A DNA stretch of 64,000 nt from the NCBI GenBank assembly GCA_050010755.1, contig JBEKKK010000001.1, positions 864,001-928,000 of the forward strand, in the 5' to 3' direction. The DNA is from Candidatus Bathyarchaeia archaeon. Its GTDB lineage: Archaea; Thermoproteota; Bathyarchaeia; Bathyarchaeales; Bathycorpusculaceae. How positions within the stretch are numbered: position 1 is the stretch's first letter; every line of letters starts with the position of its first letter. Shown here in pieces: positions 43,332 through 58,724 of the stretch. The translations under genes and the position numbers were made by a program. Below the pieces are notes generated by a model. That model saw only the letters and a program-made list of their open reading frames with translations, did no database searches and was not told the origin of the DNA.

Positions 43332-43481
43332 ATCTCATGATAACGGCCCAACAGAAGCGGTGCGCACAATAACCTTGAGAAACAAACTCGCCAAAGGCAT
43401 AAATTTCGCCGAACCGCTGCTGTCTCCGAAAAAGGAAAAGTTCATCTACAAGATGGCAAGTAACGGTTCAGGGGAAAATTT

Positions 43482-43931
43482 TTGAAACAAGGCAAGAAAA
43501 CGGTTCTCGTGGTCGACGATGACGAAACAGTTCTGAAAAGCATAAGCAAGTATCTAGCCTCCAAGGGTTATGGCGTAGAAACTGCCACGACTGGACGCGA
43601 AGCAGTGGAAAAGTCTAACAAATGTTTCATCAACCTGGCAATCTTGGACATCAGACTTCCGGACATGGATGGAACGGAACTTCTGACGAGGATGATTGAA
43701 ACTGAGCCTAAGATGAAGAAGATTATGCTCACCGGGTACCCGAGCGTGGAAAACGCGGCTGAATCCGTCAACAAACAGGCGGACGCTTACATTCTCAAGC
43801 CTGTTGATCTGAAGAAACTCTTCAGAGTCATAGAACAGAAGCTAGTGGAACAGGAACAAGAATTGAAAATGGACCGTAAGCGACTTATAACCTACATAAA
43901 GAGCCGAGACAAAGAACAGGGCGACACTTAA
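43482..43931 (+). CDS. single-domain response regulator (receiver)
   Basis: VVDDD, LDIRLPDMDG (phospho-Asp), LTG, KP; no output domain; no kinase in window. Confidence 0.93.
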   Translation: MKQGKKTVLVVDDDETVLKSISKYLASKGYGVETATTGREAVEKSNKCFINLAILDIRLPDMDGTELLTRMIETEPKMKKIMLTGYPSVENAAESVNKQADAYILKPVDLKKLFRVIEQKLVEQEQELKMDRKRLITYIKSRDKEQGDT

Positions 43932-44066
43932 ACTGCCTCTCAGTAGAAGAAATGCGATGCTTGGTCTTATGACGCCCGAACAATTCAATGTCACATGTCG
44001 CACAAGAATGTCTCTTTTTCAAATCTGCAAGGTTTAAATTTTAAACAAATCAACCAAAATTCTACT

Positions 44067-44221
44067 GCGGTCACCAACCCTGCGCTGTGACGCTCAATCC
44101 TTCTCCCTCTCTTCAACATCCATCCTTCTACACAACCTCACACGCGTGCAGGAACATACGCGCACATGGACTGGGATGTGAGAGGGTGAAGAAGGACAAA
44201 GCCAGCGCGCTAGCTAATTTT
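44067..44221 (+). ncRNA. candidate ~150-nt structured non-coding RNA
   Basis: TTTAAATTTTAAA at 44033-44045; nested complementary blocks GCGCTG/CAGCGC, TCCTTC/GAAGGA, CCCTCTC/GAGAGGG, ACATCC/GGATGT, CGCGTG/TACGCG; ends at a short T-run; no ORF. Confidence 0.5.
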
Positions 44222-44244
44222 CCGTAAAACTTGACAGGTCATCT

Positions 44245-47200
44245 TTATCCTTTTAGCCAGCCCTTGATTCCAAGTTCGCTGACCTTGAGGGTCAGTGGCT
44301 CAGGCTGGTGCGATTTGTAATTTCCGTTTTCGTCGAGATACAGTACCGTGGGTTTAAGTGAGAACTCGCCTTGAACTTTCGGCTTGAGTTTAAGCTTCAC
44401 TTCTTCGGTTTTCAAGGGGTCAAGTCGTTTTCCTTTCATGTTCAAATAGCTGTCTTCCACCCTGTAGACTTCGGGTTTTTCTGCCAGTTCGAAGCCTTTC
44501 GGGATGAGCTCGGTGATTTTCATCAACAGCGCAGGGCCTTTTCCTGCATTGACAAGCTCTATTTCCAAGTCCAAATTTTCACCCACGTTTAGCTGTTTTT
44601 GGCGGGAAATGATGTTTGCCTGTATGTTAGCGTTCTCAAACTTCTCAATACCCACAGCATTCTCATGACTCGGAGCAGGCGTACTGAACGCCGTCGTTGT
44701 AGAGACAATTGTAGGAGTGTGTAACACCTCACTGAGGGACATAGCCAGCTCTTGTTCTTCTTTCACTTTGTCAAGGAGTCTCAGAACCTGTTCTCTCTTT
44801 TCTGGGTGTTCAGCTTTCATGAAAGAGCCCGCGGAAGTTTGCAGGATTTTTTGGGCCATTGCAAACAGTTTTGTTTTTCTTTCAGGGTCAGCTTCTTTCT
44901 TTGCGTTGTTGATGTTTGAGTAGGCGTCTAGAAGCAGTTCGGTTGCTTTGGCGTATTCCGAAGCGCTCTGAATGCCAGCTTTCACGTAGTATCTTGCGGC
45001 GCTTTCCAATTGCTGAATGGCGATGTTGTGGAGTTTTTCGTCCGCCGTGTCGGAAAATTCCATTCCAGCTTCAAGTGCTCTGCAGAAGCGACTGTGCCCC
45101 AGTGCTAGCGTCTTTGCTTTCTCGTTGGGGCTAAGCTCTTTGGCCTTCTCAAATAGCTGAGATGCTTCCGCGTATAAACCTGGCGATTCCTCGGCTTCAG
45201 CCTTGGTCATTTTTGCCCAAGCTTGAGAGAGAGTTGCGATAAGTTTGAACTCCTTCTTGTCCTGCTCTGTTTCTACAGCTTCCTGTATGCCTTCGAGGAT
45301 TTCAGCTGCTGAACTGTACTTCTCGGAGCTTGAAAAGTGATCTCCCTTCTTGTCAAAGATTTTGGCTTCTTCAACTGCGACTCGTGCTATGCAGTATTTA
45401 TGTCTCAGGTCGGTAGCCTTCAACATTTCTTCTGCCATCTCTTTTTCATCGGCGTCCTCGATCGTTGGCAACTGGTTTTCCAGAGACTTTCTGGTTTCCT
45501 CTAGAAGTGTGGAAGCTGTCTCAAAGGCTTGAAGAGCTTCTTCACTGTTCTCTTTCCTGCTCAGTTCTTCTGCTTTGTCAAGCTTTGCCCATGCTGAATA
45601 GTTAGGTGCGAGATAGTTCCATCGTTTCAATGATTTGTGAAGACCTGCGGCTTTGTCAAAATGCTCTTCTGCCATTTTATATTCTTGTTTCTGATGATGA
45701 AATCTTGCTTTTTCAATTTCGCTCCAAGCTTGCATGTACAGCGCATGGTCGCCGTAGAAGCCTTTGAGCTGTGGGAACTTCTCTAATGCCGAAGCGTAGC
45801 TCCGTGATGCACACTCAAAATCCTGAGCGGCTGCCAAATGGTCTCCAAGCTTGTCATATACTTGTGCTCTTCTCCAACAATTCTCCGCTATTCTACTCAC
45901 CAAGCTGAGCTTTTGATAGGATTCGGTTGAAGCGTCATAACTCTGTACCGCTTTTTTCAGATGCTCCTTCTCGCCCGTTAATTCGTACAAACGAACAAGC
46001 GCGCGTGCATATCCATGTTGCAGTGCTCCCACGGTTACGAAGAGAGAGGTCCCCGAGCCTTTCTTAATCATGTACGTCAATTCTCTGATGCACAACTCGA
46101 TTGCTTTCTGCTTGTCGGCCACTGCAGCCACGAGCAAAGCCTTCTTTTTCTCCGAGTCCTCGGTCACTTCAGCAAGTTCATATTCAACGTTTCCCAACGA
46201 ACTTCGCATGACACCAATATTCCAGTATTGAAAAGGGACAAGGCACTCTTGAATTCCCTTGGCTTTATTTATGTAAACGAGGGCTTCTTCAAGACCTTTT
46301 TTTCTTTCCACAAGCTCTGCTTCGAATTTGGTGAGCCTGTGGCAAAGCCAGCCTCCCCCACCATACCAAGCCATCATGATTTCCGGATAACCAGATTCTT
46401 CCCACACCTTTCGATTGCGCAGACCCCACTGGAAAGCCTCTTCAAGTAAGGCTCTTTTTTTCTTCGGATCAGTCTCAACGTCAACTTGAAAATAGAGACG
46501 GCTCTGTTCAATTCCTGCTCTAGTCCAGGCAAGATCGCCGCGGGGGCTTACGAAAGGCACCTTGCTGAACTCGCACAGTGATTCCTCTGCATATTTTAGA
46601 CACCTTTCAATGGCGCGCTCTTTCTCAGCTGGATCATCGGTTCCCTCAAGCTTCCATGCAGTGTGGTAGACGAGCCAATCTAATGCGCAACCGATAATGA
46701 ACTTGTCATTCATCTTTTTGCCGTATTCTAACGCTTTCGTACAGTTTTCAAACGCTTGATCGGAGCCTTCCAAGCCGAAGAAAACTTGGCCTCCAAAAAC
46801 GGGATACACAGACTCGGTCATCGCTATTTGTTCAGAAAGCTGTTTGGCTTTGCCCCAATAGTTGAGGCCTTCCAGTCGATACTTCTCCCTTTCATTAATG
46901 TCTCTGAAGTTGTAGCTGAAAACTCCTAGAAAAACGACGGTTCGGGCGTAGGCCATCGCAAGTTGGCAAGCATCCCCAGAGGTTGAGAGGAATTCTATTG
47001 CCATCTCGCCCGACTTCACTGCCTCTTGTATTACCTCTTCGCGGGATTTGAAATCGGGTTCACGGGTAAATAGAAAAATCGCTGCGTCTGAAAGTTGGAG
47101 GTATGTCTTCACAAATTCACTTCGTTCCTCTATCTTTTCGAATGCTCGCATACTCCCAGTTGCGAGCTTCCAGCATTCATCCAACCATTTCTTCTTTTCA

Positions 47201-47556
47201 GAACTGTCAGACGCCAACCAATGCTCAATGTATGCGTTGGTAGCATTGCATCGAAGACCTTTGGCATTCGCCTTCTCAGAGCCATTGATCCTTTCGTAAG
47301 CCTCAAGAGCCTTTCCATAGTGAGCAGCAGCCTTGTTCATCCTGTTCGTGAACTCGTTCACATTTTCGGCCTGCATCGCAGCTTTGCGGAAGGCATAACC
47401 TAAGCGCTCGTGGAGATCGCCTGAGCTTGAGAAATTCTGTGCCGATATTGAGTCCAATACTTTCGCGTAATTCTCAGCCGCGCCTAGCCAATCATACTCT
47501 TTTTCCTTTATTTTGGCCTGAGTCAGGATTGCATCGGCGCTAGATGTGTTTGACAT
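44245..47556 (-). CDS. large cytoplasmic TPR/alpha-solenoid protein with C-terminal Ig-like beta-sandwich
   Basis: About 970 aa of A/E/K-rich helical repeats (AAENY.K, A.HY.KA, AS.LFEKA); C-terminal LDLEIELVNAGKG.A...G.F.L.P.V.Y.D; no signal peptide. Start uncertain (47556 or 47622). Confidence 0.85.
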   Translation of the reverse strand: MSNTSSADAILTQAKIKEKEYDWLGAAENYAKVLDSISAQNFSSSGDLHERLGYAFRKAAMQAENVNEFTNRMNKAAAHYGKALEAYERINGSEKANAKGLRCNATNAYIEHWLASDSSEKKKWLDECWKLATGSMRAFEKIEERSEFVKTYLQLSDAAIFLFTREPDFKSREEVIQEAVKSGEMAIEFLSTSGDACQLAMAYARTVVFLGVFSYNFRDINEREKYRLEGLNYWGKAKQLSEQIAMTESVYPVFGGQVFFGLEGSDQAFENCTKALEYGKKMNDKFIIGCALDWLVYHTAWKLEGTDDPAEKERAIERCLKYAEESLCEFSKVPFVSPRGDLAWTRAGIEQSRLYFQVDVETDPKKKRALLEEAFQWGLRNRKVWEESGYPEIMMAWYGGGGWLCHRLTKFEAELVERKKGLEEALVYINKAKGIQECLVPFQYWNIGVMRSSLGNVEYELAEVTEDSEKKKALLVAAVADKQKAIELCIRELTYMIKKGSGTSLFVTVGALQHGYARALVRLYELTGEKEHLKKAVQSYDASTESYQKLSLVSRIAENCWRRAQVYDKLGDHLAAAQDFECASRSYASALEKFPQLKGFYGDHALYMQAWSEIEKARFHHQKQEYKMAEEHFDKAAGLHKSLKRWNYLAPNYSAWAKLDKAEELSRKENSEEALQAFETASTLLEETRKSLENQLPTIEDADEKEMAEEMLKATDLRHKYCIARVAVEEAKIFDKKGDHFSSSEKYSSAAEILEGIQEAVETEQDKKEFKLIATLSQAWAKMTKAEAEESPGLYAEASQLFEKAKELSPNEKAKTLALGHSRFCRALEAGMEFSDTADEKLHNIAIQQLESAARYYVKAGIQSASEYAKATELLLDAYSNINNAKKEADPERKTKLFAMAQKILQTSAGSFMKAEHPEKREQVLRLLDKVKEEQELAMSLSEVLHTPTIVSTTTAFSTPAPSHENAVGIEKFENANIQANIISRQKQLNVGENLDLEIELVNAGKGPALLMKITELIPKGFELAEKPEVYRVEDSYLNMKGKRLDPLKTEEVKLKLKPKVQGEFSLKPTVLYLDENGNYKSHQPEPLTLKVSELGIKGWLKG

Positions 47557-47825
47557 GTTATCAGACTGAAATCTAGGTACCATTAAGTATCTGAAAAGCC
47601 TTTTCATGAATGACGTTTTCAATGGATACGCACGGGGACTTTTGAAGCGTGGTTTTTCGCATAACTAAGTAGCGACGCGGTGCCATAAGTCAGAGCGCTC
47701 GCTTTCTTGGAAGTACGCGCCTTAATTGTCGCTCATTAGTGAGAATTCATACAGTTTAAAACAAAACGTCCTGTCTTCTATCATTAGATATCCGAGTCTG
47801 ATTTGAACTCTGCGGGTCGTAATAA

Positions 47826-48344
47826 ATGACATATCCTGCACAGATACCACCAGAACTCTTTGCTCTCGTAGGCGTTTTCCTATTCCTAGCGCTTAGCCTG
47901 TTGACCTACCTCGGCGAGGATAGATTTCCGAAGAAGCTTCCTTACATCTATCAGGTGGCGGCTTTCTTTGGTCTTCTTTCTCTTGTGGCAAGCAGGTTTG
48001 TTTTTCCAGGGCTCGGGGAATCCACGCGGCTTTGGTATTGCTATGGTTACCTCATCGCGGTATTGGTGAATGTTATAGGTACAAACATCTACCTCACAGT
48101 GCCCAAACGACAGTATAAAACATCGAGAAAGTGGTCAGCAGTTGTCACTTTCCCTTCAATTCTGATCAGCTCATATCTTGTTGCTCAGTATGGCCTTTCG
48201 CAAGCTTCCTTGGTGTCTTCAATTGAGCAAATAACCGTGGTGGTTTCCTGTGTTGCTATGGCAACGTGCGCTGGCATTCTTGTTTTCAAGCGAATTTCGC
48301 ACGCACTATTTCATAACGTCCACGTAGGGGAGGTGACAAAGTGA
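47826..48344 (+). CDS. ~5-TM hypothetical membrane protein
   Basis: Hydrophobic helices; stop overlaps next start (GTGA). Confidence 0.75.
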   Translation: MTYPAQIPPELFALVGVFLFLALSLLTYLGEDRFPKKLPYIYQVAAFFGLLSLVASRFVFPGLGESTRLWYCYGYLIAVLVNVIGTNIYLTVPKRQYKTSRKWSAVVTFPSILISSYLVAQYGLSQASLVSSIEQITVVVSCVAMATCAGILVFKRISHALFHNVHVGEVTK

Positions 48345-48910
48345 ATCTGAGAAAAGCATTGTCTAAGAAGTATGTCAAATTCATTATTCTTGTTGCATTG
48401 GCTGCACTCATTGGCACTGCAAGTGCTGCTGTCTATTACTCGGTATTAATGCAGCCAAGTGTGACGATAACTGGCGCGACAGTGATTTTTGTTTCGGGAA
48501 ACGACTTTCCCACAGGATCTACCATGGGAACCAACTCAACGTGGGTCTACCTTGCCCTAAAGGCATATCCTAACGCTACTCTAACTTATGATCAACCGCT
48601 CAACATCAGCAATACGGATGCTGCATCTCACAATTTCAGACTACGCAACGTTTCGATCACGCCCGCTTCAGGAACCGCTTCAGTCAGTAACTTCACGGCC
48701 ATCAACTTCTTTGTCGAAAACACAGCCGGAGCCGTACAAGCTAACTTCTACTACAACACCACAGGCACCACTTGGAACACTCCAGCCACAACGGGGTATA
48801 TGACATTACCTGCAAGCACCACATGGATAGTCATGGTGCAGACGACGGCGGCCCCTGGTGCTAGTAGCACAGTCGCAGCAAGCCTAGTGATATCAGTAGA
48901 CGTGCAGTAG
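48341..48910 (+). CDS. secreted beta-rich fibre subunit (TasA/archaeal bundling pilin-like), copy 1
   Basis: GGAGGTG RBS; Sec signal ending ASA-A; T/S/N-rich all-beta mature part; 6 N-glycosylation sequons; no C-terminal anchor. Confidence 0.65.
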   Translation: MNLRKALSKKYVKFIILVALAALIGTASAAVYYSVLMQPSVTITGATVIFVSGNDFPTGSTMGTNSTWVYLALKAYPNATLTYDQPLNISNTDAASHNFRLRNVSITPASGTASVSNFTAINFFVENTAGAVQANFYYNTTGTTWNTPATTGYMTLPASTTWIVMVQTTAAPGASSTVAASLVISVDVQ

Positions 48911-48953
48911 TTCACCTTCCATTTTTCCTCTAGTCTGATACGGAAGATCGAAT

Positions 48954-50969
48954 ATGGAAACGCGTCGCAAGCGGAAGCGTTTCTCATTTGTCGTTTTCAT
49001 AGTGCTAACTTTGTTTCTTGTCACGGGTCTTTTTAGCTCGGATGTTTTTGCTGCAGCTCACGATTCATTCCTAAACCAGCCCAGCACAACAATTGCTGCA
49101 CCTCCTGTTCTTTTGTATGCTGGCACAGCTGGCACCAGCACCATTTACGCGAACAGTACGAGCGCAATGGTCAACGTTGCGGCTCCAGAAAATCAGTATG
49201 TCACTCAGCAAAGCAACGTTGACGGAGTAGGAGACGTGGGCACTCACTCGAACTTTACTGCTCAACAGTATGGTCCCGACAATATTTACGACAACCTAAC
49301 CGAAGCAAACACAAATGCAGCAGCTCCTTACATCCCTATCACGTTCAATAACACCGTATCATCAGCTACTCCGAACCCGTTCCAAGAAGAGATAACCTGG
49401 AATCCCTCCAGCTACACGAGTTACGAAGCATCCAACTTGGGCAACATCCGATTCTATAATGACAGCGGCTTTACTACACCTCTGTACGCGTGGCTCGAAT
49501 CCTGCACCCCTTCACTGTCTAATGCAGCTACCAATGCCACAGCATGGATCAAACTGACCACCCAAATAGCTGGAAACGGAGGCACCCAAACGATTTACAT
49601 GGCGTTTCTCTCCACAGCTACGAGTTTTGACGGCAGTTACTGGGGAGTCGCGCCCAACCTGTCAAGCCCCTACGGCCAATACGACAACGGAGCAAACGTA
49701 TTCAGCTTCTACGACAACTTTACTGGGACAAGCCTTAACTCCCGATGGACAATATTCGGTTCGTCACAAGGAACGGTATCAGTCAACAACGGCGTCACCC
49801 TCACATCGTCTTCTTCGACTCTTTCCATAGGCATATTTGCATCATACACACCACCAACAACGGGTATAGTCACAGAAACATACTTCAATGCCACAAGCCC
49901 CACGGCGGGATACAGAATCTTTGACGGATACGGCATGACAAGCACATCAACAGCAGAACAGAACGGGTATATAGGCATCCTTCAAGCGGGTGGCGGAAGC
50001 ACCCTCAGACTGAGTAAGATGGTATCTGGAACCCAGACCACCCTCGTCTCCGCTACAGACGCTTTGACCGCGGGCAACAACTACACAAGCAGTCTTCTGT
50101 GGCAAAGTAGCACTCTAACTATGGCTGATTTAACCAATAGCCATTCATCATCTACCACCGACACTACCTACAGTCTTTCCACAATGACTCAAGTCGCAAT
50201 GGCACTAGGCGCCACCAGCGGAACCAAGTATGTCACCTTCTGGTTCAGGGTGAGGCAAAGCCCTCCAAGCGGAGTGATGCCGACCACCTCTTTCGGCAGC
50301 GTGGCTTCCTCGAGTCCAAACTACAAGCTTGACATTGAAGAACAATGGACAAACACAAACACAACAGCCACGAACGAGGAACTTGACATTTACACTGGAG
50401 CCTTCAGCACTCCAGCATCAATCCTGTCAGTTCAATGGTATAACACCACCAGCAGCTCTTGGCTCACAATAATCAGTTCACTAAATGCAAGCACTTGGAA
50501 CAATGTTACCGTGGTCAATTATCTCACGTCTTCAACGTTCACAATACAGTTTGTGAACACCACAACTGGAGCGACTCAAAGTTGGTGGCAAATAGATTGC
50601 GCACTTCTGCACATTTGGACAACTTCAACTTATGACCCTGTTCTCAATGTTGTCAACCAAGTGACAACTGCTTGGAATGTGAGCTTGCAAGTCTACGGCA
50701 GCTCAAACATTGCCCGCCTATCAAGCGCGGCCATAAGTTTGCACGACGGCACCTCGAGCCAGCAAATAGTCGTCAACGGCGGAAGTATAGTTCAGTCGCA
50801 AGGAGCATTGTTCAACCTTCTGGGAGGCTCAGGCACCACTATATACGTGAGCATCAGCAACCTCTTAGCAAACTCGACCGGAACGTCGTATCTGTATGCC
50901 TATCTGGAAATCCTTACGCCAAACACGTCCACCTTCTTAGCCTACGCAGTAACCTTCGCAATTACTTGA
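48954..50969 (+). CDS. large secreted adhesin/minor fibre subunit with DUF2341-like and lectin-like inserts
   Basis: Signal peptide; NIRFY...LYAWLES...WIKL...YDNG..VF.FYDNF (DUF2341-like); N- and C-terminal segments align with the 48341 subunit. Confidence 0.7.
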   Translation: METRRKRKRFSFVVFIVLTLFLVTGLFSSDVFAAAHDSFLNQPSTTIAAPPVLLYAGTAGTSTIYANSTSAMVNVAAPENQYVTQQSNVDGVGDVGTHSNFTAQQYGPDNIYDNLTEANTNAAAPYIPITFNNTVSSATPNPFQEEITWNPSSYTSYEASNLGNIRFYNDSGFTTPLYAWLESCTPSLSNAATNATAWIKLTTQIAGNGGTQTIYMAFLSTATSFDGSYWGVAPNLSSPYGQYDNGANVFSFYDNFTGTSLNSRWTIFGSSQGTVSVNNGVTLTSSSSTLSIGIFASYTPPTTGIVTETYFNATSPTAGYRIFDGYGMTSTSTAEQNGYIGILQAGGGSTLRLSKMVSGTQTTLVSATDALTAGNNYTSSLLWQSSTLTMADLTNSHSSSTTDTTYSLSTMTQVAMALGATSGTKYVTFWFRVRQSPPSGVMPTTSFGSVASSSPNYKLDIEEQWTNTNTTATNEELDIYTGAFSTPASILSVQWYNTTSSSWLTIISSLNASTWNNVTVVNYLTSSTFTIQFVNTTTGATQSWWQIDCALLHIWTTSTYDPVLNVVNQVTTAWNVSLQVYGSSNIARLSSAAISLHDGTSSQQIVVNGGSIVQSQGALFNLLGGSGTTIYVSISNLLANSTGTSYLYAYLEILTPNTSTFLAYAVTFAIT

Positions 50970-51066
50970 GCGCACACGTGCTCAGGTTTAGAAAGAATCG
51001 CCATTTTGAATTCATAACGTTTTTCAACTTTGCATGCATCGATTGAATAGTGGAGCGTGATTATTT

Positions 51067-51516
51067 ATGAAGTTACGGGAACTGATGACCAAGAACGTAA
51101 TCACGATAGACAAAAACATGACGGTGCAACTGGCTGCGGGAACCATGAACAAGAAGAGAATAGGCTGCTTGGTGACCGTTGACAAAGAGGGAATCAAAGG
51201 AATCGTAACAGAGAGAGATCTACTCACGAGAGTCTTGGAAGCATGCAAAGACCCCAAGACAACCAAGGTCTCAGACGTTATGACCCAGAGCATTATTTTC
51301 GGGAATCCTGAAATGCAACTGGTTGAAGCTACACGCCTAATGTTTGAAAACGGAATCAAGAAACTGCCAATACTAGAAGACAACCAACTGGTCGGCTTGG
51401 TCACACTTACCGACATAGCTCGTGCGACAAGCTCTGACAGGAAGACTATGGATCTCATCGAAGCACTCTCAAACATGCACAAGGTCAGCTCATTACAAGC
51501 ACACACAACAACGTAG
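51067..51516 (+). CDS. CBS domain pair protein
   Basis: MTKNVIT...GIVTERD...VSDVMT...LPI...VGLVTLTD. Confidence 0.93.
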   Translation: MKLRELMTKNVITIDKNMTVQLAAGTMNKKRIGCLVTVDKEGIKGIVTERDLLTRVLEACKDPKTTKVSDVMTQSIIFGNPEMQLVEATRLMFENGIKKLPILEDNQLVGLVTLTDIARATSSDRKTMDLIEALSNMHKVSSLQAHTTT

Positions 51517-51704
51517 CCCGCGTGCACCATGGAAAATTCATGATAAAATCTTTTTGCTAGCGCCTCTCGCAACTTGCTGAAACACTATTTGGGGTGCATG
51601 CGTCAACTTGGCTAAAGGCCTGCCGGGGAGTAAAGCATCACGTCTGGAAACCTTGTTTCAATCCTGGCTCGTGCTTTCTCAACATCGATGTCCAGAACGT
51701 CCTA

Positions 51705-52010
51705 CTAGCCCAGCATATTGGCGACTTCTTCGAAAATGTGCAGAAAACTCTTTCCTTTCTTAGTCGTCCTGTAAACGATTCCTTTCTTCTCTCTTGATTC
51801 TTGCAACAGTTCTGATTTGGAAAGCAACGGCAGGTACTTTTGCGCCTGTTCAGAACTCAAGCCGACTTTGCACATCAGTTCCGTCTTCTTAACCCCACTC
51901 GTGGCAAGCAGCAAAATATCTGAGATTATGATAAACGGGTCTCTGCGACTGCGGGCACCGTCGACTCTCCAGGGAGGGAAAACGCTGCGTGTCAGCATCA
52001 CATCTATCAA
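51705..52010 (-). CDS. archaeal winged-helix regulator (HTH_45/DUF4364-like)
   Basis: RRDPFIIISDIL...KTELMCKVGLS...YRTTKKG; paralog of the 14011 gene. Start uncertain. Confidence 0.8.
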   Translation of the reverse strand: MIDVMLTRSVFPPWRVDGARSRRDPFIIISDILLLATSGVKKTELMCKVGLSSEQAQKYLPLLSKSELLQESREKKGIVYRTTKKGKSFLHIFEEVANMLG

Positions 52011-52345
52011 ACGATACGCGACGTTTATACCTTGCCGCTAAACCCAAACTAGGTTTTGAATCGATCAATTCATCAATCCACCACACAAATCTATCAATAA
52101 CGCAAGAAACAACGTTCAACTTACACGACTGCAATAGTCGTGCCCGTGTCTTGCAAGCTGACGAAGCCTTGAATCAATACGCCTTTGACGTAGAACCCGC
52201 AAAACCATCTCTGTTCAACTGTAACCCTCAAATTGTGTCTAAAAAATCGCAAATTGGTTCAAGTGCGAGTGCTCTCTCTTATTTTCTGTTTCTATTTCTA
52301 CCAACATAAGAACAAACAAAAAAAGCGCGCGCTTTTCGGCCGGTC

Positions 52346-52675
52346 TCAGAGAAGTTCTGGAAAATACTTGAGCCAATCCCGACAGGATGCTCTGGTCGTC
52401 ATCTCAGTTGTGCGGAGAGCTAGAGCGACTTCTCGCTGAGTTTTCAAATTCCCCATATTTGATCCGAGGTGATAGAATAGTCCTGAGAGGATCCCTTTCT
52501 CGCTTTTTCCACTGAAAAAGGCAGGTCTTTTTTCGTAGGCTTTTTGAATTATCTTTGAAGCTCTGGTCGAAACAGTTGCTGCGATTGAAGGTTGATTCTG
52601 CCATGTTTTAGCTGCAAGGACCATCACTTTTTCAGGCGACAATCGTTTTGGAAGATAGCTTTCGGTTTTTTTCAT
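52346..52675 (-). CDS. truncated TFB/TFIIB-like protein (single C-terminal cyclin repeat with HTH)
   Basis: SGKSEKGILSGLFY...KTQREVALALRTTEMTTRA matches the TFB consensus GKxPxGxAAAxxY...TQxEVAxxxxVTEVTVR; no Zn ribbon or first cyclin repeat. Confidence 0.7.
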   Translation of the reverse strand: MKKTESYLPKRLSPEKVMVLAAKTWQNQPSIAATVSTRASKIIQKAYEKRPAFFSGKSEKGILSGLFYHLGSNMGNLKTQREVALALRTTEMTTRASCRDWLKYFPELL

Positions 52676-53000
52676 CTTTATTGTAGACCTCTCTGAGTTT
52701 CTTGACATGATTTTCAAACGATGATTTATCCTGCTTGTCAAACTTGATTTTCATCTCGGCGCATAAGGCTGCAAGTATAGTCTCTTCTAAAACTGCCGCG
52801 GCACCAAGAAGCTGTCCCCTTCCAGGGCCGAGGATCTTTCTGAGCTCTATGGAAAATGCGCTTGGTTTTGTTGGGATTTCATAGAAGGCGCACCCGTTTT
52901 TTTGCAGATAGTCGTAGATTATGCCCGCGTTTATGTCTCCGAAAACGTATCTGACGGTCTTGTCAATGACCTGTAATAAAAGGTCATCAAATTTGTCCAA
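52632..53000 (-). CDS. NitrOD5/DUF3227-like small helical protein
   Basis: IDKTVRYVFG.....IYDYL......EIPTKP..FS.ELRKILG...A.VLE..I, a pattern seen in archaeal signal-transduction loci; GGAGG RBS. Confidence 0.7.
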   Translation of the reverse strand: MDKFDDLLLQVIDKTVRYVFGDINAGIIYDYLQKNGCAFYEIPTKPSAFSIELRKILGPGRGQLLGAAAVLEETILAALCAEMKIKFDKQDKSSFENHVKKLREVYNKDEKNRKLSSKTIVA

Positions 53001-53301
53001 TCTTCAAGCCTCCTTCTGATCACTCGGCGCGTGCTAAGAACTCCAACTTGCATAACAAAATAGCTCAGAAAGCCAAATTTCGTTAAAGGAATGCATAAAG
53101 TCATACCTTCTCATCCCTGCCCTGTTCCCAGGTTCTTTCAATGCCACGATGTCCGTGAGACTTTTGATAAAATGTTCAGACAAATCTTTAGAAATCTTCG
53201 ACCACATGCCATCCTACTCCGAACAGGACTATGGACTGTCTTCCAGGTTTTATTTGACTTTCGGTCAAAAAAAATGCATAAGTATGATTGAAAGTGAAGA
53301 A

Positions 53302-54435
53302 TTACGCCGCTTTCAGGAAACGATTCACTGTAGACTGCAGCTTTTCTAAATGTGCCGCATGATCATACAGCCACTTGTTCTCCTTGAACAGTTGATAAGG
53401 AATCGTGTCTCTTTGTGCCTTAGCCATGTCCTGAATGACGTATTCGTAAGTGTTCAGGAATCCCGCCCTCACTAGCTTTGAAAGCGCTTGAACTAGATTC
53501 CTTAACTGTTGTCTTGGCAAATACACTTGGACAAGTAGCTGATTTCTGCCGTACACTTTCCCCACTGTTCTGACGAATGGTTTGTCCAGTAATGAGGAAG
53601 CGAATTTGGCAAGGTTGTCATAGTTGCTGAATACAAAACGGAAGAAATAGGTGTCTGGGGACAATCCTTTAAAATGGTCTGCTAGTATTTGGGGGCCTTC
53701 AAACATTTTCTCCTTCGTGATGTGGTTATCTATATGATACTTCACTCTTTGCAAGCTTATCCCAAGCATCCTGGCTATATCTTTCAACTTGATGGCACAA
53801 TTCTTTTCAAGTTCTTTCAGTATCATGATGTCTATCCAATCTGCCCTCTGTGGGTAATCGTCGGGATCTTTGAGTGTGTAAGGGAGCTCTTTCTTATTCA
53901 TAATCGCTTCTTTTAGCCATGAATCCCAGGAAAAGGTCCATTCTTCAGAGGTGTTGTCAAACCATGTGCTTGTCACATTTACATTTTGGAAGCAGGTGGA
54001 AAAGTAAAATTTGACGCTGCACATCGAATCTATCTGTTGAAGCTTTTCCAAAAACCCTTCAAATTCTTTTTCTCTTCCTGCGGGGATTCCGTATACCGCC
54101 AAGCATTTTGGGGACCCGACGCATTGACTCAAGTATAGCCAATAATCATTACATTTTAGGCATTCGTAAAGGAGTTCTTCATAACCTGGCTTTGACTCTG
54201 CAAAGACTGCGACTTTTCTGAGTCCGATGTTAGTATGGTAGATGTTTCCTTGGAGAAATAGGGAAAACTGAGAGCGCAGGTGGTTGATTCTGCGGCGGAG
54301 TGTCGCGTTCGGCATGTTAAGTTTGGCTGCGACTTTTGATGTGTTTTTTGGGCCGCATAGTGCCAATCCTTCGAGTACCTCTACATCGATGCTGCGGACC
54401 TTATTTTGCTCGTTGGATTGCACGCGTTTGATCAA
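53302..54435 (-). CDS. tandem Lrp/AsnC-type regulator (HTH-RAM-HTH-RAM)
   Basis: IDVEVLEGL...SKVAAKL.MP..TLRRRI...IGL and IDIMILKEL.KN....LKDIARMLGISLQRVKYH, each followed by a beta-alpha domain. Confidence 0.82.
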   Translation of the reverse strand: MIKRVQSNEQNKVRSIDVEVLEGLALCGPKNTSKVAAKLNMPNATLRRRINHLRSQFSLFLQGNIYHTNIGLRKVAVFAESKPGYEELLYECLKCNDYWLYLSQCVGSPKCLAVYGIPAGREKEFEGFLEKLQQIDSMCSVKFYFSTCFQNVNVTSTWFDNTSEEWTFSWDSWLKEAIMNKKELPYTLKDPDDYPQRADWIDIMILKELEKNCAIKLKDIARMLGISLQRVKYHIDNHITKEKMFEGPQILADHFKGLSPDTYFFRFVFSNYDNLAKFASSLLDKPFVRTVGKVYGRNQLLVQVYLPRQQLRNLVQALSKLVRAGFLNTYEYVIQDMAKAQRDTIPYQLFKENKWLYDHAAHLEKLQSTVNRFLKAA

Positions 54436-54499
54436 GGACGGTCTGACTACTTGTTGTCACAATGGATTTTTAGCCCTTTCCCTTGATGCTTTGATGGTT

Positions 54500-54727
54500 C
54501 TATGGGAAGCCTCCACCGCCCACTGGGTCGCCGCCGTTAGGATTTGTGCCGTTCACTGGGTCGTCGACGAATGTCAGGGTTGGACTGTTTCCGTTATGAC
54601 TGTGACCTGCAGAATCGCTGCCCAATGCGCGAGTTGCATGCGAAGCTGTGGAAATCATCGTAACGGCAAAAATCGCTAAGAACAGCAAAACGGAAAGCAA
54701 TAAGAACTTACCAAAATTCAGTTTCAT
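54500..54727 (-). CDS. 75-aa secreted pre-pro-peptide ending DDPVNGTNPNGGDPVGGGGFP
   Basis: Strong RBS GGAGGTG 5-6 nt before ATG 54727; TTTTATTTT TATA-like box at 54778-54786; K-rich n-region + hydrophobic h-region + ASHA/TRA cleavage site; low-complexity spacer. Confidence 0.8.
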   Translation of the reverse strand: MKLNFGKFLLLSVLLFLAIFAVTMISTASHATRALGSDSAGHSHNGNSPTLTFVDDPVNGTNPNGGDPVGGGGFP

Positions 54728-54875
54728 GTTTTTCACCTCCATTCACTTTTGGTCAAAAAACTGGTTGAGTTCGATTGAAAATAAAAGTTGTGTGAAAGCA
54801 GCATTCAGAATTTGAAATCACCGCTCGCGCTAATCATAAATACGAGTTGTTGGGGCAGTTTGTTCTTGACGTGGG

Positions 54876-55493
54876 GTGACTGCAATTTCTGTTCGAGGAT
54901 TTAGGCCGAGGGCGCATCTTGCAACAATCGCTTTGTTGTCCTTCATTTTCTCCTTCATTGCAGCGAGAACATTCACGACGTTTTACCCGTCCACAGTTCT
55001 GGTCAGTGGCGGCATTCACGTTCATCATTTTTGGTATGGTATAGCCTTGCTAGCCATTGGGGGTTGGCTAGGAATCGGCTATGAGAATAGAGAAACTGGC
55101 CGGGTGGCAGCGATTCTTTACGGGGCTGGCGGCGGGCTGATCGTTGATGAGGTAGGACTGTTGCTCACTTTCGGAAACTACTGGACAGGTTTAACATACA
55201 CTTTCCTCATCATTCTCCTGGCTTTCGTCACCATCTTAATGCTTTTCAACAGATACCGACTGCTAATAGTGACAGAGCTCGGCGAATTAGTCGGCAACAA
55301 GGCGAGCCTTTATCTGGGCGTTTTCCTTGCCGCAGCTTCTGTGGCTTTCATAACGCAGACCAACAATGCTTTGGTCACGGGGATGGCGAGTGGATTAACA
55401 ATCATCGGAATAATCCTCATAACGACTTACCTGATTCGCCGAGCAAAGATAATCCCAAAAAGAAACTCTTGGAGCATGAGGAGGATAAACTGA
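54876..55493 (+). CDS. integral membrane protein with HVHHFWYG motif
   Basis: 6 TM helices; GIHVHH, YG.G.GLIVDE. Confidence 0.8.
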   Translation: MTAISVRGFRPRAHLATIALLSFIFSFIAARTFTTFYPSTVLVSGGIHVHHFWYGIALLAIGGWLGIGYENRETGRVAAILYGAGGGLIVDEVGLLLTFGNYWTGLTYTFLIILLAFVTILMLFNRYRLLIVTELGELVGNKASLYLGVFLAAASVAFITQTNNALVTGMASGLTIIGIILITTYLIRRAKIIPKRNSWSMRRIN

Positions 55494-55561
55494 AAAGCGG
55501 ATCTAAAACGCACAAGAAAGGGCTTTCTAGAATCAAAACATTTTAAGACTCCAAGAAGTTA

Positions 55562-56089
55562 TTGACTGAAGAACCAAGTTCTAAGCTGGTCTCGTATATG
55601 GCTTCAACTTCAAGCGGTGACCAAAAAGTCGACGAAATTACTCAAAGAATCATGACAGAAATTGAGAACAAAAACTCAAAAGAGCTTACAGAGTCCGACG
55701 AAATGATAAAGATCCTGCATTTGACGAATATGCATCACGCGAAAACTTTGCTGCAGCATGCGGATGAGGCGCCCACTAAGACCGAACGTGACGCCGGGAA
55801 ACAGGCAGTTGTACAGGCACTGCTGCTTTCTATGTGGCATCAGAGGCTATATTTCATTGTGCGCTCATTCATCATGGGCATAATTGGGGCCATGCTTACG
55901 CTTGTTTTCGTTCTGATTTTTGGCCCCATAAAACTCACTCTGGAAATCCCCTTGGGCATATTCTCTTTCGTGTTCACGCTCGCCACCTCGCGACTGCTCG
56001 ATGTGCAGATTGTCAAAGCTGCAAGAATCATAGTTAACTTTTTAGCAAGCCATAAGAGTCTGAGGGATTTCGTCCTAAGCCACTTCTAA
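55562..56089 (+). CDS. hypothetical membrane protein (2 C-terminal TM)
   Basis: 175-aa ORF; start uncertain. Confidence 0.65.
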   Translation: MTEEPSSKLVSYMASTSSGDQKVDEITQRIMTEIENKNSKELTESDEMIKILHLTNMHHAKTLLQHADEAPTKTERDAGKQAVVQALLLSMWHQRLYFIVRSFIMGIIGAMLTLVFVLIFGPIKLTLEIPLGIFSFVFTLATSRLLDVQIVKAARIIVNFLASHKSLRDFVLSHF

Positions 56090-56320
56090 CGTCAGAATTC
56101 ACTGCGATGGACCATCAGGGATATTTTCCTTACAATCAATCTGCATAAGAAAAAACCAGAAACCTTAGCTGTGCTCTGAACGCAAAGTTGAGTGAAGGCG
56201 TCGTCAAAGGACCAAGTGACTTAATTTTGAAAACATGGATTTTTTACAGGTTGATGACTAGATAGAATAGCAGGATAACGGCGCGCGAGCGCACCTGCTC
56301 AATATGTGCCTTCATTACCG

Positions 56321-56401
56321 CTCACTAGTCGGGATCCAACAGTTTACTCACTAGTTGAGATCCAACAGTTTACTCACTAGTAGAAATGCACAGAGTTTAA
56401 A
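56321..56401 (+). repeat. 26-bp tandem repeat (about 3 units, core CTCACTAGT) abutting the TATA box of fibre-subunit copy 2
   Basis: Units start at 56321, 56347 and 56373: CTCACTAGT-cgggatccaacagttta / CTCACTAGT-tgagatccaacagttta / CTCACTAGT-agaaatgcacagagTTTAAA. Confidence 0.9.
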
Positions 56402-56463
56402 CAAGGGTTCTGCCACTTACCATTAAACAGAGAGCGCCGATGGACATATGCTGAGGTGAAAAC

Positions 56464-57033
56464 GTGAATCTAAGAAAAGCATTGTCTAAGAAATATTTCA
56501 AATTCGTTATTCTTGTTGCAATGGCCGCACTTATTGGCACTGCAAGTGCTGCTGTCTATTACTCGGTATTAATGCAACCAAGCGTGACGATAACTGGCGC
56601 GACAGTAATTTTTGTTTCAGGAGACGACTGGCCCATCGGATCTATCTTGGGTACCAACTCAACGTGGGTCAGCTTAGCCCTACAGGCGTATCCTAACGCG
56701 ACTCTGACATATGATCAACCGCTCAACATCAGCAACACGGATACTTCATCCCACCTTTTCAGATTGCGCAACATTTCGATTTTACCCGCTTCAGGAATGT
56801 CATCAGTTAGTAACTTCACGGCAATCAACTTCATTGTTGAAGACACGGCCGGAACCGAACAAGCTGAATTCTTCTACAACACCACAGGCACCACTTGGAA
56901 CACTCCAGCCACAACGGGATACATGACATTGCCGGCGAGTACCACATGGATAATCAGTGTTCAGACAACCGCGGCCCCAGGTGCCAGCAGCACCGCCGCA
57001 GCAAACCTAGTGATATCAGTCGACGTGCAGTAG
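56464..57033 (+). CDS. secreted beta-rich fibre subunit (TasA/bundling pilin-like), copy 2
   Basis: Same length (189 aa) as 48341..48910; 27 differences by manual count (~86% identity); GAGGTG RBS. Confidence 0.7.
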   Translation: MNLRKALSKKYFKFVILVAMAALIGTASAAVYYSVLMQPSVTITGATVIFVSGDDWPIGSILGTNSTWVSLALQAYPNATLTYDQPLNISNTDTSSHLFRLRNISILPASGMSSVSNFTAINFIVEDTAGTEQAEFFYNTTGTTWNTPATTGYMTLPASTTWIISVQTTAAPGASSTAAANLVISVDVQ

Positions 57034-57109
57034 TTCACCTTCCATTTTCTTTAGCTGGCGCTAGGCCATTTGCTTAAACAACACTGAAAATGATGGTAAT
57101 GTTGGTGTG

Positions 57110-57187
57110 TGGTGGGCCGGACCGGACTCGAACCGGCGACCTTCTGCACGTCAAGCAGATGTCCTAACCGAGCTAGACTACCGGCCC
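57110..57187 (-). tRNA. tRNA-Val(GAC), intronless, CCA encoded
   Basis: GGGCCGG...TCTGC-TT-GAC-GT-GCAGA...GCCGG-TTCGAGT-CCGGT-CCGGCCC-A-CCA. Confidence 0.96.
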
Positions 57188-57894
57188 TCTTATTTTCATT
57201 AAGGCAACTTGCATTTAAGAGATTTGGGTCAATGGTTGGGTCAATTGGGTCAGTGTTCTTTTTCTCTTCGCGCCCGAACGATGGGCAACTTGACCATCAG
57301 ATATATTGGCAAGAAGACAAGGATAGAGAGTAGTGAATAGATGATTGGAATGGTAACTCATAAACAGAAAGAAAAGATACAGGCTCAGAACAAACCCAAG
57401 AAACTGAGGAAAGAAACACAACGCAAAAAGAAGTGACTATCGTTTTGCCAAGCTTGGCTCTTTTCTTGAATTGATAGAGATTTCAGGGATTCCATAGAAG
57501 TTTTTCATCGCAGGAAGGCTAGTCTACACACAAAGAAGAAATCACAAACTGAAGAAGGATAGCCTGTTCTACAGTTTAGAACAACTTGTACAAAAGCATA
57601 GAATAATGAGGCTGTTTTCCCAGTAGTTCTTCGTTGGTGAGGAAAGAGCGGAACTCCCTTCTCCTTTCTCATTCTACTCTTCCTCACAAATAGAAACTTA
57701 TCCTGCAAGACGATTTTCATTGACAGAGAGCTCTGGAACCGCGGACACTTATGTTGGCCGTTCAGTCTTGGTGAGAAAAGGGAATCTAGGACTCTTTTCC
57801 ATAGAGAATACCTCTTCTGTTTGCGGCAGGTGTTTGTTTATTGATTCTTCCACAAATCATAAGAACTACAAAAAGGACTAGTTGATGACGTGCC

Positions 57895-58401
57895 ATGGAG
57901 AAAATGAAAACCATCGATAACAGACTCTTGGGTGAGCTACTGAAGAATAGTCGCAGGAGTGACAGAGAATTGGCCAAGGTTCTCGGAGTGTCTCAACCCA
58001 CTGTCACCAGGAGAAGGACAGCTCTTGAAAAGGACTTCATTGATGGGTACACGGCGATACCAAAATGGGAAAAAGTCGGTTTTGAATTAATTGCGTTCAC
58101 CTTTGTAAAAACCAAGCTCAAGTATGCCAAGCCTGAAGTGAGGAAAGCAGGTTTCAAGAGAGTGGAAGAGTGGATGATGAACCACGCCAATGTTATCTTA
58201 ACCATAGACGGACAGGGAATGGGGTGGGATGCAGTCTTTGTTTCATTCCACAAGAACTATTCAGCCTTTGCAGAGTTCATGAGAGAGCATGACAGTGAGC
58301 TTTCAGATAATTTGATTGAAAGCTCAAGCTTCATCGCAGACATTAACCCGATAACTATTAGAAAAGCATTTCACCTGAAGTATCTGGCAGATGCGAAATA
58401 G
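57895..58401 (+). CDS. Lrp/AsnC family transcriptional regulator
   Basis: D..LLGELLKNSRRSDRELAKVLGVSQPTVTRR...IDGYT.IP...KVG. Confidence 0.92.
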   Translation: MEKMKTIDNRLLGELLKNSRRSDRELAKVLGVSQPTVTRRRTALEKDFIDGYTAIPKWEKVGFELIAFTFVKTKLKYAKPEVRKAGFKRVEEWMMNHANVILTIDGQGMGWDAVFVSFHKNYSAFAEFMREHDSELSDNLIESSSFIADINPITIRKAFHLKYLADAK

Positions 58402-58724
58402 TACTGTAGAAACGAAAGGCAGAAAGATCTATCGGAAGGATGTACAAAAGTTATAAGAACTGAAACAAAAGGACAGATTCGCTAATAGAGAAAAAAATGC
58501 GTTGATTGGATTGGGTTTATTTCAGTGCGATCTTCACGGTTCTTGCTGTTTTCTTCAGAGGGAGTTTAGGGCCTAAAACTCCATCTTTGAACTGCTCAAC
58601 CTTTTTTAGGTCCGCTCATGGGCTAGATTGTAGCAAGCTGAATACACGCACGCGTTGAGTATGGTTAGCGGAAAAGCGTATACCACAGGTTCCCTTGACA
58701 CATGATGAAGAATTGTATCGGTGA

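Follow-up and report, generated by a model that had tools for sequence, protein, structure and literature searches.

Gene content beside tRNA-Val in a Bathyarchaeia genome: probably a mosaic with a candidate pilus cassette and a candidate peptide-regulator pair

Does the run of signalling and surface-protein genes that lies beside a transfer RNA (tRNA) gene in the genome of a peat archaeon of the Bathyarchaeia form one regulatory circuit, or do its parts show separate patterns of conservation? Members of the Bathyarchaeia abound in peat and sediments, and because they have been studied largely through metagenome-assembled genomes (MAGs) little is known of their cell surface and social behaviour. 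The window analysed here comprises 64,000 nucleotides (positions 864001-928000 of contig C1) of a genome of 2.19 Mb (2,186,690 bases, 8 contigs, 93% complete; G000 in the following), and its gene content between positions 40878 and 57187 was read from the list of open reading frames (ORFs) together with Pfam and NCBIfam family scans. The region is bordered on the left by the second of two P-type ATPase genes (40878-43331) and on the right by a tRNA-Val(GAC) gene on the minus strand (57110-57187; ARAGORN and Rfam, 65.4 bits), whose 3′ end is directed towards the variable segment described below. A sequence-only reading of this DNA had correctly named the tRNA and had remarked on the lack of metabolic enzymes, no family of which was matched by the scans between the P-type ATPase/CLC cluster and tRNA-Val; it had further proposed that the intervening 14 kb (43482-57187) constitute a single circuit in which a secreted peptide, various regulators and a non-coding RNA govern the synthesis of fibres.

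Comparison with related genomes makes it fairly probable that the 14-kb stretch is instead a mosaic, being part of a roughly 21-kb variable segment and made up of two units whose conservation is independent, together with loose regulators and membrane proteins. The first unit (47826-50969, together with an extra pilin gene at 56464-57033) would be a cassette of the archaeal thread or bundling-pilus type within the TasA superfamily, and the second (53302-54742) combines a candidate pro-peptide with a tandem Lrp/AsnC regulator. A single circuit is not favoured, because the gene families are scattered in the closest relative and show no association in their presence and absence. Attractive as it was, that reading would thus have to be corrected in that the cluster of signalling genes beside the tRNA appears to be a variable segment and not a conserved pathway.

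Distribution of the gene families

The synteny analysis and phylogenetic profiling across Bathyarchaeia that the sequence-only reading had suggested as a check revealed no linkage of the regulators with the fibre cassette. In 13 pilin loci of relatives, which were searched with all proteins of the region, the gene for a membrane protein of 172 amino acids (aa) is located immediately 5′ of the pilin gene in 12 cases, the thirteenth locus starting at the pilin gene itself, and the third cassette gene follows the pilin in 10/13. The 1125-aa protein with a weak tetratricopeptide repeat (TPR) signal, a small winged helix-turn-helix (wHTH) protein, the 'mini-TFB', the tandem Lrp, the peptide and the two other membrane proteins were found in none of these loci (0/13), a CBS-pair protein was found in 2/13 and a receiver in 2/13 at a distance of 8-9 kb, and a 122-aa protein gave one weak match. 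A one-genome-per-species scan with an alignment of the membrane protein yielded 80 loci, 78 of which are labelled Bathyarchaeia or Bathyarchaeota. A same-strand pilin-family ORF is present in 66 of them; among the 14 loci without one, 13 end too soon to hold it and a single one is roomy but gave no match, i.e., the pilin was found in 66 of the 67 loci with room. Within 3.5 kb, a CBS protein occurs in 6/80, an Lrp in 2/80 and a receiver in 1/80 of these loci, and every other protein of the region in none (0/80). The CBS protein was considered as a cassette partner and judged too weak a candidate, as its 2/13 and 6/80 occurrences stem from overlapping sets and CBS proteins have many paralogues. 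One of the 80 loci (L060) comes from a MAG labelled as bacterial (Krumholzibacteriaceae), for which a binning error seems likelier than transfer.

Presence and absence were likewise compared across 40 relatives. The cassette (pilin or membrane gene) occurs in 16/40, the tandem Lrp in 15/40 at E ≤ 1e-50 and in 21/40 at E ≤ 1e-5, and full-length homologues of the TPR protein in 6/40. There is no association of the cassette either with the tandem Lrp (both, cassette only, regulator only and neither: 8/8/7/17, Fisher p = 0.20) or with the TPR protein (3/13/3/21, Fisher p = 0.67). None of the eight genomes having both cassette and tandem Lrp carries them in one neighbourhood (0/8, and 0/11 at a looser cut-off), and in the sole genome in which both reside on one contig they are more than 1 Mb apart; similarly, TPR protein and cassette share a contig in none of the three relatives holding full-length homologues of both. 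With the pilin and membrane-protein profiles, the cassette was detected in none of four same-genus genomes (77-99% complete), and three congeners possess the peptide-regulator pair without a detectable cassette. The cassette is thus conserved across the Bathyarchaeia independently of the peptide/tandem-Lrp pair, and since the pair has been kept in three congeners lacking the cassette its conserved role is not the control of fibres.

A comparison of the window with congeners at the DNA and protein level shows that the segment beside the tRNA is variable as a whole. The distance from the GAF gene to tRNA-Val is 20.7 kb in the window and 2.8 kb in the closest relative (G003), and the distance from the GNAT gene to tRNA-Val is 4.0 kb in the congener G002; in the manner of a genomic island, a tRNA-adjacent segment therefore lacks a counterpart in close relatives. 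The genes of the window are spread over at least five contigs of G003 (C3, C7, C8, C9 and C15), with the ATPase on C15, the TPR gene (92% DNA identity) and a fragment similar to the 122-aa protein on C9, the tandem Lrp and the peptide on C3, the CBS protein and a 205-aa membrane protein on C8, and tRNA-Val with its downstream Lrp gene (Lrp168) on C7. In G003, the TPR orthologue (L017; 90% identical) has no receiver, and none of the other genes of the window, closer than about 8 kb. Scattering in relatives and independent distribution are the first half of what the sequence-only reading had named as speaking against a single 14-kb circuit.

Several points weigh against the mosaic. In G000 the parts do lie together, with a pilin gene on either side of the peptide-regulator pair, and a regulatory link particular to this lineage is conceivable. 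The location of genes on separate contigs of fragmented MAGs is no proof of distance, yet the 3.5-10 kb flanks are empty of the families. Marks of a classical island are missing, as no integrase family was found among the ORFs scanned and no att repeat was detected, the repeat searches yielding no second copy of the 3′ part of the tRNA either in 43000-58500 or in the whole window. Moreover, the counts from the 13-locus and 80-locus sets are not independent since the sets overlap and the genomes are related, and the genome sets behind the profile and locus counts overlap and are related as well.

The arrangement itself is not an assembly artefact because an independent metagenome run (X3) tiles it with identical contigs. 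A contig of 7006 nt bridges 48751-55756, another of 2165 nt bridges 46289-48453, and the tiling breaks solely at the duplicated pilin genes; in a further run (X10), a 92%-like contig extends over the TPR gene and nothing else. The data sets listed as holding this DNA are peat and wetland metagenomes, with no RNA data set among them for 47600-57200.

With respect to the borders of the segment, the entire part 36440-57110 of the window is replaced by 2.8-4.0 kb in two congeners, and as this part includes two P-type ATPases and a CLC channel the 'proton-pump cluster' also belongs to the variable part. On the opposite side, tRNA-Val and the downstream Lrp gene (57110-58401) are neighbours both here and on contig C7 of G003 (L148), their relative orientation being divergent in the window and convergent in G003, which points to a local rearrangement at the tRNA. 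Beyond the region, a 617-aa protein (59545-61398) with internal repeats and a weak PKD match has a paralogue on contig C2 and DNA matches of 83-87% in two congeners.

The candidate pro-peptide and the tandem Lrp regulator

The regulator of the second unit (377 aa; 53302-54435, minus strand) carries two units of helix-turn-helix (HTH) and RAM domain in one chain and has no transmembrane segment. It matches HTH_24 (1.6e-10) as well as HTH_AsnC, and profile matches to solved Lrp/AsnC proteins cover both halves (1I1G at 192-298, 2EFO at 6-79, 1RI7 at 4-127), so that HTH plus RAM, as in Lrp/AsnC proteins, are found at positions 4-128 and again at 184-316; the 'double Lrp' of the sequence-only reading was well recognised. 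Its secreted peptide corresponds to a small ORF on the same strand (54500-54742), which has a hydrophobic segment near the N-terminus, carries the conserved Gly/Pro motif GDPxGGG..P at its C-terminal end and is a candidate for an exported pro-peptide. Its start is probably ATG 54727 (75 aa), which lies behind GGAGGTG, because a GGAGG motif precedes the peptide ORFs of this family (14/16, by eye).

When 18 tandem-Lrp loci of relatives were fetched and the window was added, a small same-strand ORF was found immediately 5′ of the tandem Lrp in 17 of the 19 loci, window counted. These ORFs comprise 46-118 aa, and each has an N-terminal hydrophobic segment and a tail of the GDPxGGG..P or PIDxPGGP type. 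The shortest statement of this architecture is given by the precursor at L024, which consists of the signal segment and nine motif residues only, and in G003 there are three paralogous pairs with different tails (L019, L020 and L024). At two further loci, L021 (G004) and L022 (G002), the pro-peptide contains three and two tandem 16-residue units, respectively, that hold GDPVGGG, and such repeated tail units resemble multi-copy precursors of processed peptide signals.

This arrangement calls to mind the RRNPP-type systems of Firmicutes and phages, such as Rap-Phr, PlcR-PapR and AimR-AimP. An adjacent short pro-peptide of the exported type with a conserved C-terminal part is present in 17/19 loci, whereas in place of a TPR-type receptor there is a regulator made of two Lrp/AsnC units; by analogy, the pair may work like an RRNPP pair without being a member of that group. 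The Phr-like arrangement suspected by the sequence-only reading thus holds insofar as a gene for a putatively exported pro-peptide adjoins one for a cytoplasmic regulator, but the partner is the tandem Lrp and not the TPR protein. In particular, the Rap-Phr-Spo0F layout is not found, since the peptide gene is operonic with the Lrp and 7 kb away from the TPR gene.

A possible contact between the two products was modelled with the regulator (18-row alignment) and peptide residues 36-80. The models scored 0.80, 0.79 and 0.83 and three controls all 0.00; when the score was calibrated, 116 of 157 solved complexes and 2 of 215 mismatched pairs came up to the mark. Between runs, at least 52% of the contacts coincide, and the peptide residues in confident contact are 67-80, i.e., exactly the conserved tail, which in the model touches both RAM-like domains and the C-terminal extension of the regulator. 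Two conserved positions of the regulator, W99 and E210, belong to this modelled interface. The complex model supports binding of the tail by the tandem Lrp, and the conserved C-terminal tail of the peptide would most likely be the ligand of the regulator.

Building on this, we tentatively propose that the pair represents archaeal peptide-based signalling between cells, with a pro-peptide exported via Sec and giving rise to a short Gly/Pro-rich C-terminal peptide (GDPxGG or PIDxPGGP). It is conceivable, though doubtful, that this peptide is re-imported and bound between the two RAM-like domains, the several pairs per genome serving as private channels. The pair would then possibly be a functional analogue of RRNPP on another receptor fold that in G000 was perhaps recruited beside pilus genes. 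For uptake, three genes of OppA-type binding proteins are available in the genome. If true, an exported peptide acting on a double Lrp regulator would matter more than the cassette. A search of the literature at the level of listings turned up no peptide-receptor signalling system in Archaea.

A number of findings count against signalling. Two of the 19 loci have no recognisable peptide ORF; the complex score is a measure of model confidence, and with a pLDDT of 46-47 the partner's own fold is uncertain; and cleavage of the signal peptide, further processing and re-import are all steps that we infer. Beyond the order, members of the regulator family were detected (E ≤ 1e-20) in 33 genomes of a sample of 200 from the phylum, but no such peptide ORF was found by the ORF filter 5′ of these distant homologues, the exception being an unrelated 103-aa ORF with two transmembrane segments at six loci of one genus.

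The small ORF might accordingly be no signal at all but a secreted or membrane-anchored protein that is co-transcribed with, or regulated by, the Lrp, the modelled complex being an artefact of its flexible Gly/Pro tail, and we give this explanation not quite an even chance. Besides the low partner pLDDT and the missing ORF outside the order, it would account for the fact that no processing protease or dedicated transporter was found to be conserved beside the pair at the tandem-Lrp loci, and it agrees with the circumstance that, to our knowledge, the ligands of Lrp/AsnC proteins are amino acids and not peptides. It does not explain, however, why the modelled interface coincides with residues 67-80, where alone the peptide is conserved, why none of the three controls scores above 0.00, why the precursor at L024 consists of signal segment and motif only, and why paralogous pairs of one genome have distinct tails; likewise, the repetition of the motif unit in G002 and G004 points to the tail as the likely functional product.

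The pilin cassette and its promoters

The cassette is transcribed from the plus strand and starts with the gene of the 172-aa membrane protein (47826-48344), which is predicted to have about 4-5 transmembrane segments (four by Kyte-Doolittle (KD) scan). It overlaps by 4 nt with the start of the gene for the major pilin candidate FibA1 (189 aa; 48341-48910), which is preceded by the motif GGAGGTGA. The third gene (48954-50969) codes for a 671-aa protein, and a second, solitary pilin gene, FibA2 (189 aa; 56464-57033, plus strand), is found next to the tRNA. FibA1 and FibA2 are identical in 162 of 189 residues, and the DNA repeat begins 11 nt 5′ of the start codon. A third pilin paralogue resides elsewhere in the genome (G000:C1:233763-234245; 70% identical); its N-terminal signal region is shortened, it is not preceded by a membrane gene, and the gene that follows codes for an unrelated secreted protein of 542 aa.

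Both pilin genes of the region share a promoter motif. Promoter P1 (47732-47760, plus strand), 5′ of the cassette, is composed of CTCATTAGT, a spacer and ACAGTTTAAA, and promoter P2 (56321-56401, plus strand) of three tandem CTCACTAGT-bearing units with a period of 26 nt, the last of which is fused to the ACAG(A)GTTTAAA core. Both thus have the same build, a CTCAYTAGT unit (once in P1, three times in P2) and behind it an ACAG(A)GTTTAAA core. Over all 2,186,690 bases of the genome, this combination is met with at P1 and P2 only, and 4 of the 15 genomic occurrences of the 9-mer CTCAYTAGT fall within these two promoters. Since this motif is unique in the genome and common to both, one factor probably regulates the cassette operon as well as FibA2. 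The core promoter of the third paralogue (AAGTTTGAAACAA) is related but lacks the CTCAYTAGT unit.

Another element is found 5′ of the membrane gene in relatives, where an inverted repeat, GAATTCGGA-N7-TCCGAATTC, adjoins the box CTTAAATAA at 6 of the 12 loci examined; at L005, L007 and L013-L016, which belong to several genera, the repeat is near-perfect and abuts the box CATAYGNCTTAAATAA. It resembles an operator that has been conserved with the pilus cassette, and it is unlike the motif of G000. As an operator common to both units it was rejected, because it does not occur near the promoters of the peptide-regulator pair, the one match in L025 being 6 kb off.

The promoters also bear on the reading of the whole region as a density-dependent aggregation switch, by which, if only in this lineage, the peptide, the TPR protein, the receiver and the DNA-binding proteins would steer the fibre genes. 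In its favour, G000 and the independent metagenome run have all parts side by side, the peptide-regulator pair is flanked by pilin genes on both sides, the motif at the two pilin promoters is unique and its 9-mer, in one and three copies, resembles the binding site of a factor, and a wHTH gene is also part of the bundling-pilus (ABP) operon of Pyrobaculum (PMC9245690). Nevertheless we regard such a switch as improbable. The P1/P2 9-mer is absent from the promoter of the peptide-regulator pair; beside the cassette of other genomes only the CBS protein (2/13, 6/80) and the receiver (2/13, 1/80) recur, all other regulator and membrane families being absent; the families are scattered in G003 and not associated in presence and absence; and three congeners keep the pair without the cassette. 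Within the region, the peptide is operonic with the Lrp, with the TPR gene 7 kb off on the same strand and six genes in between, and the TPR gene and the receiver gene converge on each other here and are no neighbours in G003.

Returning to the cassette as a conserved unit of its own, the nature of its products is best approached through the fold of the pilin. Its family has 82 representatives among 1.84 billion clustered proteins. The AlphaFold2 (AF2) model, based on a 57-sequence alignment, has a pLDDT of 93.9, and its two best matches are 7PNB, the thread of Sulfolobus acidocaldarius (VIA Z 14.1, rmsd 3.0, 151 residues), and 7UEG, the bundling pilin AbpA of Pyrobaculum (VIA Z 13.7, rmsd 2.5, 151 residues), the third-best being a cannula subunit with Z 8.0; Foldseek gave E-values of 7.2e-7 for 7UEG and 8.9e-7 for 7PNB. 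Both top matches are filament subunits, and they cover residues 30-189 including the N-terminal tail. The model thus has the jelly-roll/beta-sandwich fold of the donor-strand pilins of the thread/ABP type, and by fold the pilin can be assigned to the TasA superfamily in the structural sense. In addition, the sequence displays a hydrophobic segment at residues 6-24 (KD scan), a predicted signal-peptidase-I site at which S28, A29 and Y32 are nearly invariant (57 sequences), an N-terminal strand and six N-glycosylation sequons, i.e., the combination of Sec signal, cleavage site as read from the sequence and N-terminal strand that such pilins possess.

The 671-aa protein has a signal peptide, a pilin-like N-terminal strand and a C-terminal pilin-like domain (556-671), between which DUF2341/lectin-like beta domains are inserted (DUF2341, 6.3e-6), with homologues containing DUF2341 and LamG. 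Direct comparison with the 189-aa pilins yields a BLASTP E-value of 0.15. In other genomes, the third gene codes for a minimal form of 188-208 aa only, which the 671-aa protein matches at the N-terminus and at residues 556-671, and the pilin family aligns with this minimal form with an hhalign probability of 95.2% (E 2.5e-8, 131 columns, N-terminal strand included). A gene homologous to the pilin is thus co-encoded with it in 10/13 loci, as would be the case for a minor subunit. Because the minimal third gene is homologous to the pilin and beta domains are inserted here, the 671-aa protein is best read, as far as its sequence permits, as a candidate minor pilin bearing an adhesin module. Of the three related secreted subunits of the sequence-only reading, two have been confirmed as close relatives, and the third is related at the profile level only.

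Based on these similarities, the 189-aa pilin would be exported via Sec, cleaved after an Ala-Ser-Ala site and N-glycosylated, and might polymerise by donation of this strand at the N-terminus to the neighbouring subunit; filaments of thread and AbpA are held together by donor-strand complementation (PMC9715654, PMC9245690), and by analogy filament formation may be expected here. The 671-aa paralogue with its lectin-like inserts might take its place at a fibre end and serve there as adhesin or nucleator, and the multi-pass membrane protein, whose gene is translationally coupled, might anchor the fibre or assist in its assembly; cassette and FibA2 would probably be expressed together via the motif described above.

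This assignment has its weak points. Neither 189-aa protein matches PF12389 (TasA/camelysin) or any other Pfam family at E ≤ 0.01, TasA itself is not within the top 50 fold matches of the pilin, and donor-strand polymerisation is put forward by analogy. The AF2 model of the 671-aa protein (pLDDT 76, residues 27-86 disordered) retrieves from the Protein Data Bank (PDB) by Foldseek generic multi-domain beta-sandwich and lectin matches with a TM score of 0.19 or less. The membrane protein, although its family has 16 invariant columns, matches no Pfam or NCBIfam family, with nothing usable in Pfam even at E ≤ 5 and unnamed clusters under 0.9 in the ESM Atlas, so that family scans and ESM Atlas reveal no relatives of known function.

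That the 189-aa and 671-aa proteins are instead non-polymerising surface glycoproteins or adhesins, monomeric or associated with an S-layer, with the membrane protein an unrelated neighbour, is unlikely: although beta-sandwich folds are common among surface proteins that do not form filaments and the 671-aa model weakly matches lectin/CBM-type proteins only, the two best fold matches of the pilin are filament subunits with a lead of 6 Z units over the third, the locus also encodes a minor subunit that is a paralogue and has this N-terminal strand too, as is the case for the thread and ABP loci, and the membrane gene is coupled to the pilin in 66/80 loci, or 66/67 with room.

The fibre guess of the sequence-only reading was therefore a good one as regards pilins of the TasA-superfamily type, thread- or ABP-like by fold, and lacks comparative support as regards a circuit shared with the regulators. 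The candidate cassette is a concrete and testable surface-fibre system of three genes that belongs to the TasA superfamily, is distributed class-wide and has an obligate membrane partner not described previously. It would extend the family of donor-strand filaments beyond cultivated Thermoproteota and haloarchaea. The stem 'Bathyarchae' does not occur in PMC9715654 or PMC9245690, and a listing-level search turned up no literature naming the taxon in connection with threads or donor-strand pili.

Neighbouring genes and known systems

The remaining genes of the region were for the most part correctly recognised by the sequence-only reading. A single-domain receiver (149 aa; 43482-43931, plus strand; PF00072, 2.5e-25) with six paralogues in the genome is convergent with the gene of the 1125-aa protein (44245-47622, minus strand). 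The latter is indeed a giant helical-repeat protein, but its TPR hits, like all its Pfam matches, are under the cut-offs; it has a C-terminal beta-sandwich (TRAP_beta-like, residues 1011-1094) and no transmembrane segment by KD scan. Its family is expanded in G003, with eight matches on contigs C1, C2, C9, C10 and C14, three of them within 20 kb on C10, one of which has an in-frame TAG; G000 has two copies, the second with two in-frame stops. A stand-alone CBS-pair protein with many paralogues (51067-51516, plus strand; PF00571, 1.7e-27) and a small wHTH protein (51705-52010, minus strand; HTH_45, 2.3e-15; Sso10a family, 6.4e-18, over its cut-off) are present as claimed. The 'mini-TFB' (52346-52627, minus strand) shows a single TFB-type cyclin repeat, with NF001658 (2.9e-6) and the TFIIB family PF00382 (0.0091) both under cut-off; it probably starts at 52627 (about 93 aa), because the longer frame overlaps the neighbouring gene. 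The adjacent 122-aa protein (52632-53000, minus strand) had been called NitrOD5-like, a name that could not be upheld as it matches no Pfam or NCBIfam family.

Some of these small regulators recur near the tandem Lrp. Proteins resembling the 122-aa protein adjoin it in L020, L029, L024 and L031 (five loci, window counted), and a wHTH homologue lies within a few kb of it in 3 of the 18 other loci (L020, L031 and L036; four loci for the HTH_45 wHTH, window counted); PadR-like wHTH proteins are found near the pair in five loci and a zinc-ribbon protein in four. Because of this recurrence, the block from 51.7 to 54.7 kb appears to be a separate, loose neighbourhood of regulators. Elsewhere in the genome (G000:C1:1095841-1096696), the gene for a 43%-identical paralogue of the 122-aa protein directly precedes, on the same strand, that for a paralogue of the receiver (42%), and this pairing suggests that the 122-aa family works with single-domain receivers.

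To the right of the peptide there are two proteins on the plus strand, one of 205 aa with four predicted transmembrane segments (54876-55493) and one of 175 aa with a C-terminal one (55562-56089), which were rightly listed, along with the 172-aa protein, as uncharacterised in that no Pfam or NCBIfam family is matched. The former was found in 0/13 and 0/80 cassette loci and 0/18 tandem-Lrp loci, and the latter in none of the same fetched loci (13, 80 and 18). The candidate non-coding RNA finally was not borne out, as at Rfam gathering scores nothing but the tRNA is found; extension to E ≤ 1 adds two chance-level matches, the best sub-threshold match reaching 24.5 bits versus a cut-off of 50, and the fold z-scores of 56090-56463 (-1.53) and 52011-52345 (-0.08) are unremarkable. 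Taken together, the earlier observations are partly confirmed, and their interpretation is partly supported overall, its central claim of one circuit over 14 kb being without comparative support.

Among known systems, the thread of S. acidocaldarius, with Saci_0406 as major subunit and Saci_0405 as putative cap (PDB 7PNB; PMC9715654), resembles the cassette in the Sec-type signal followed by an N-terminal tail, the many N-glycosylation sequons, the co-transcribed paralogue with the same tail and the presence of further conserved neighbours of unknown role. It differs in that thread subunit and pilin share 11% sequence identity and no common sequence family, that the minor subunit here has a signal peptide and large lectin-like inserts, and that the obligate partner here is a multi-pass membrane protein. 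In AbpA/AbpB of Pyrobaculum calidifontis (PMC9245690), the pilin gene is likewise followed by one for a larger secreted multi-domain protein, proposed to be a nucleator or adhesin, there are operon neighbours with about four transmembrane segments, and a dedicated signal peptidase or chaperone/usher is missing as it is here; but AbpB is TapA-like with a fold unlike that of the pilin, whereas the third gene here codes for a pilin paralogue, and the ABP operon has eight genes and the cassette three. From TasA-TapA-SipW, the cassette is set apart by the missing PF12389 match and by the position of TasA outside the top 50 fold matches.

For the second unit, the features in common with RRNPP-type systems are a short Sec-type pro-peptide gene beside the gene of a cytoplasmic regulator, a conserved and presumably active C-terminal tail, several diversified pairs per genome, and oligopeptide-binding proteins available for uptake (the three OppA-type genes). 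In contrast to them, the receptor is a tandem Lrp/AsnC protein and not a TPR protein, the host is an archaeon, the steps after export are putative, and the TPR protein of the region is not linked to the peptide gene. With LrpA (1I1G) and FL11/PH1519 (1RI7), in turn, the regulator has in common the full HTH+RAM unit that aligns with each of its halves, whereas the fusion of two such units, the conserved Trp-rich linker and the C-terminal extension distinguish it from other Lrp/AsnC proteins, as does its modelled ligand, which would be a peptide tail held between two RAM-like domains and not a free amino acid.

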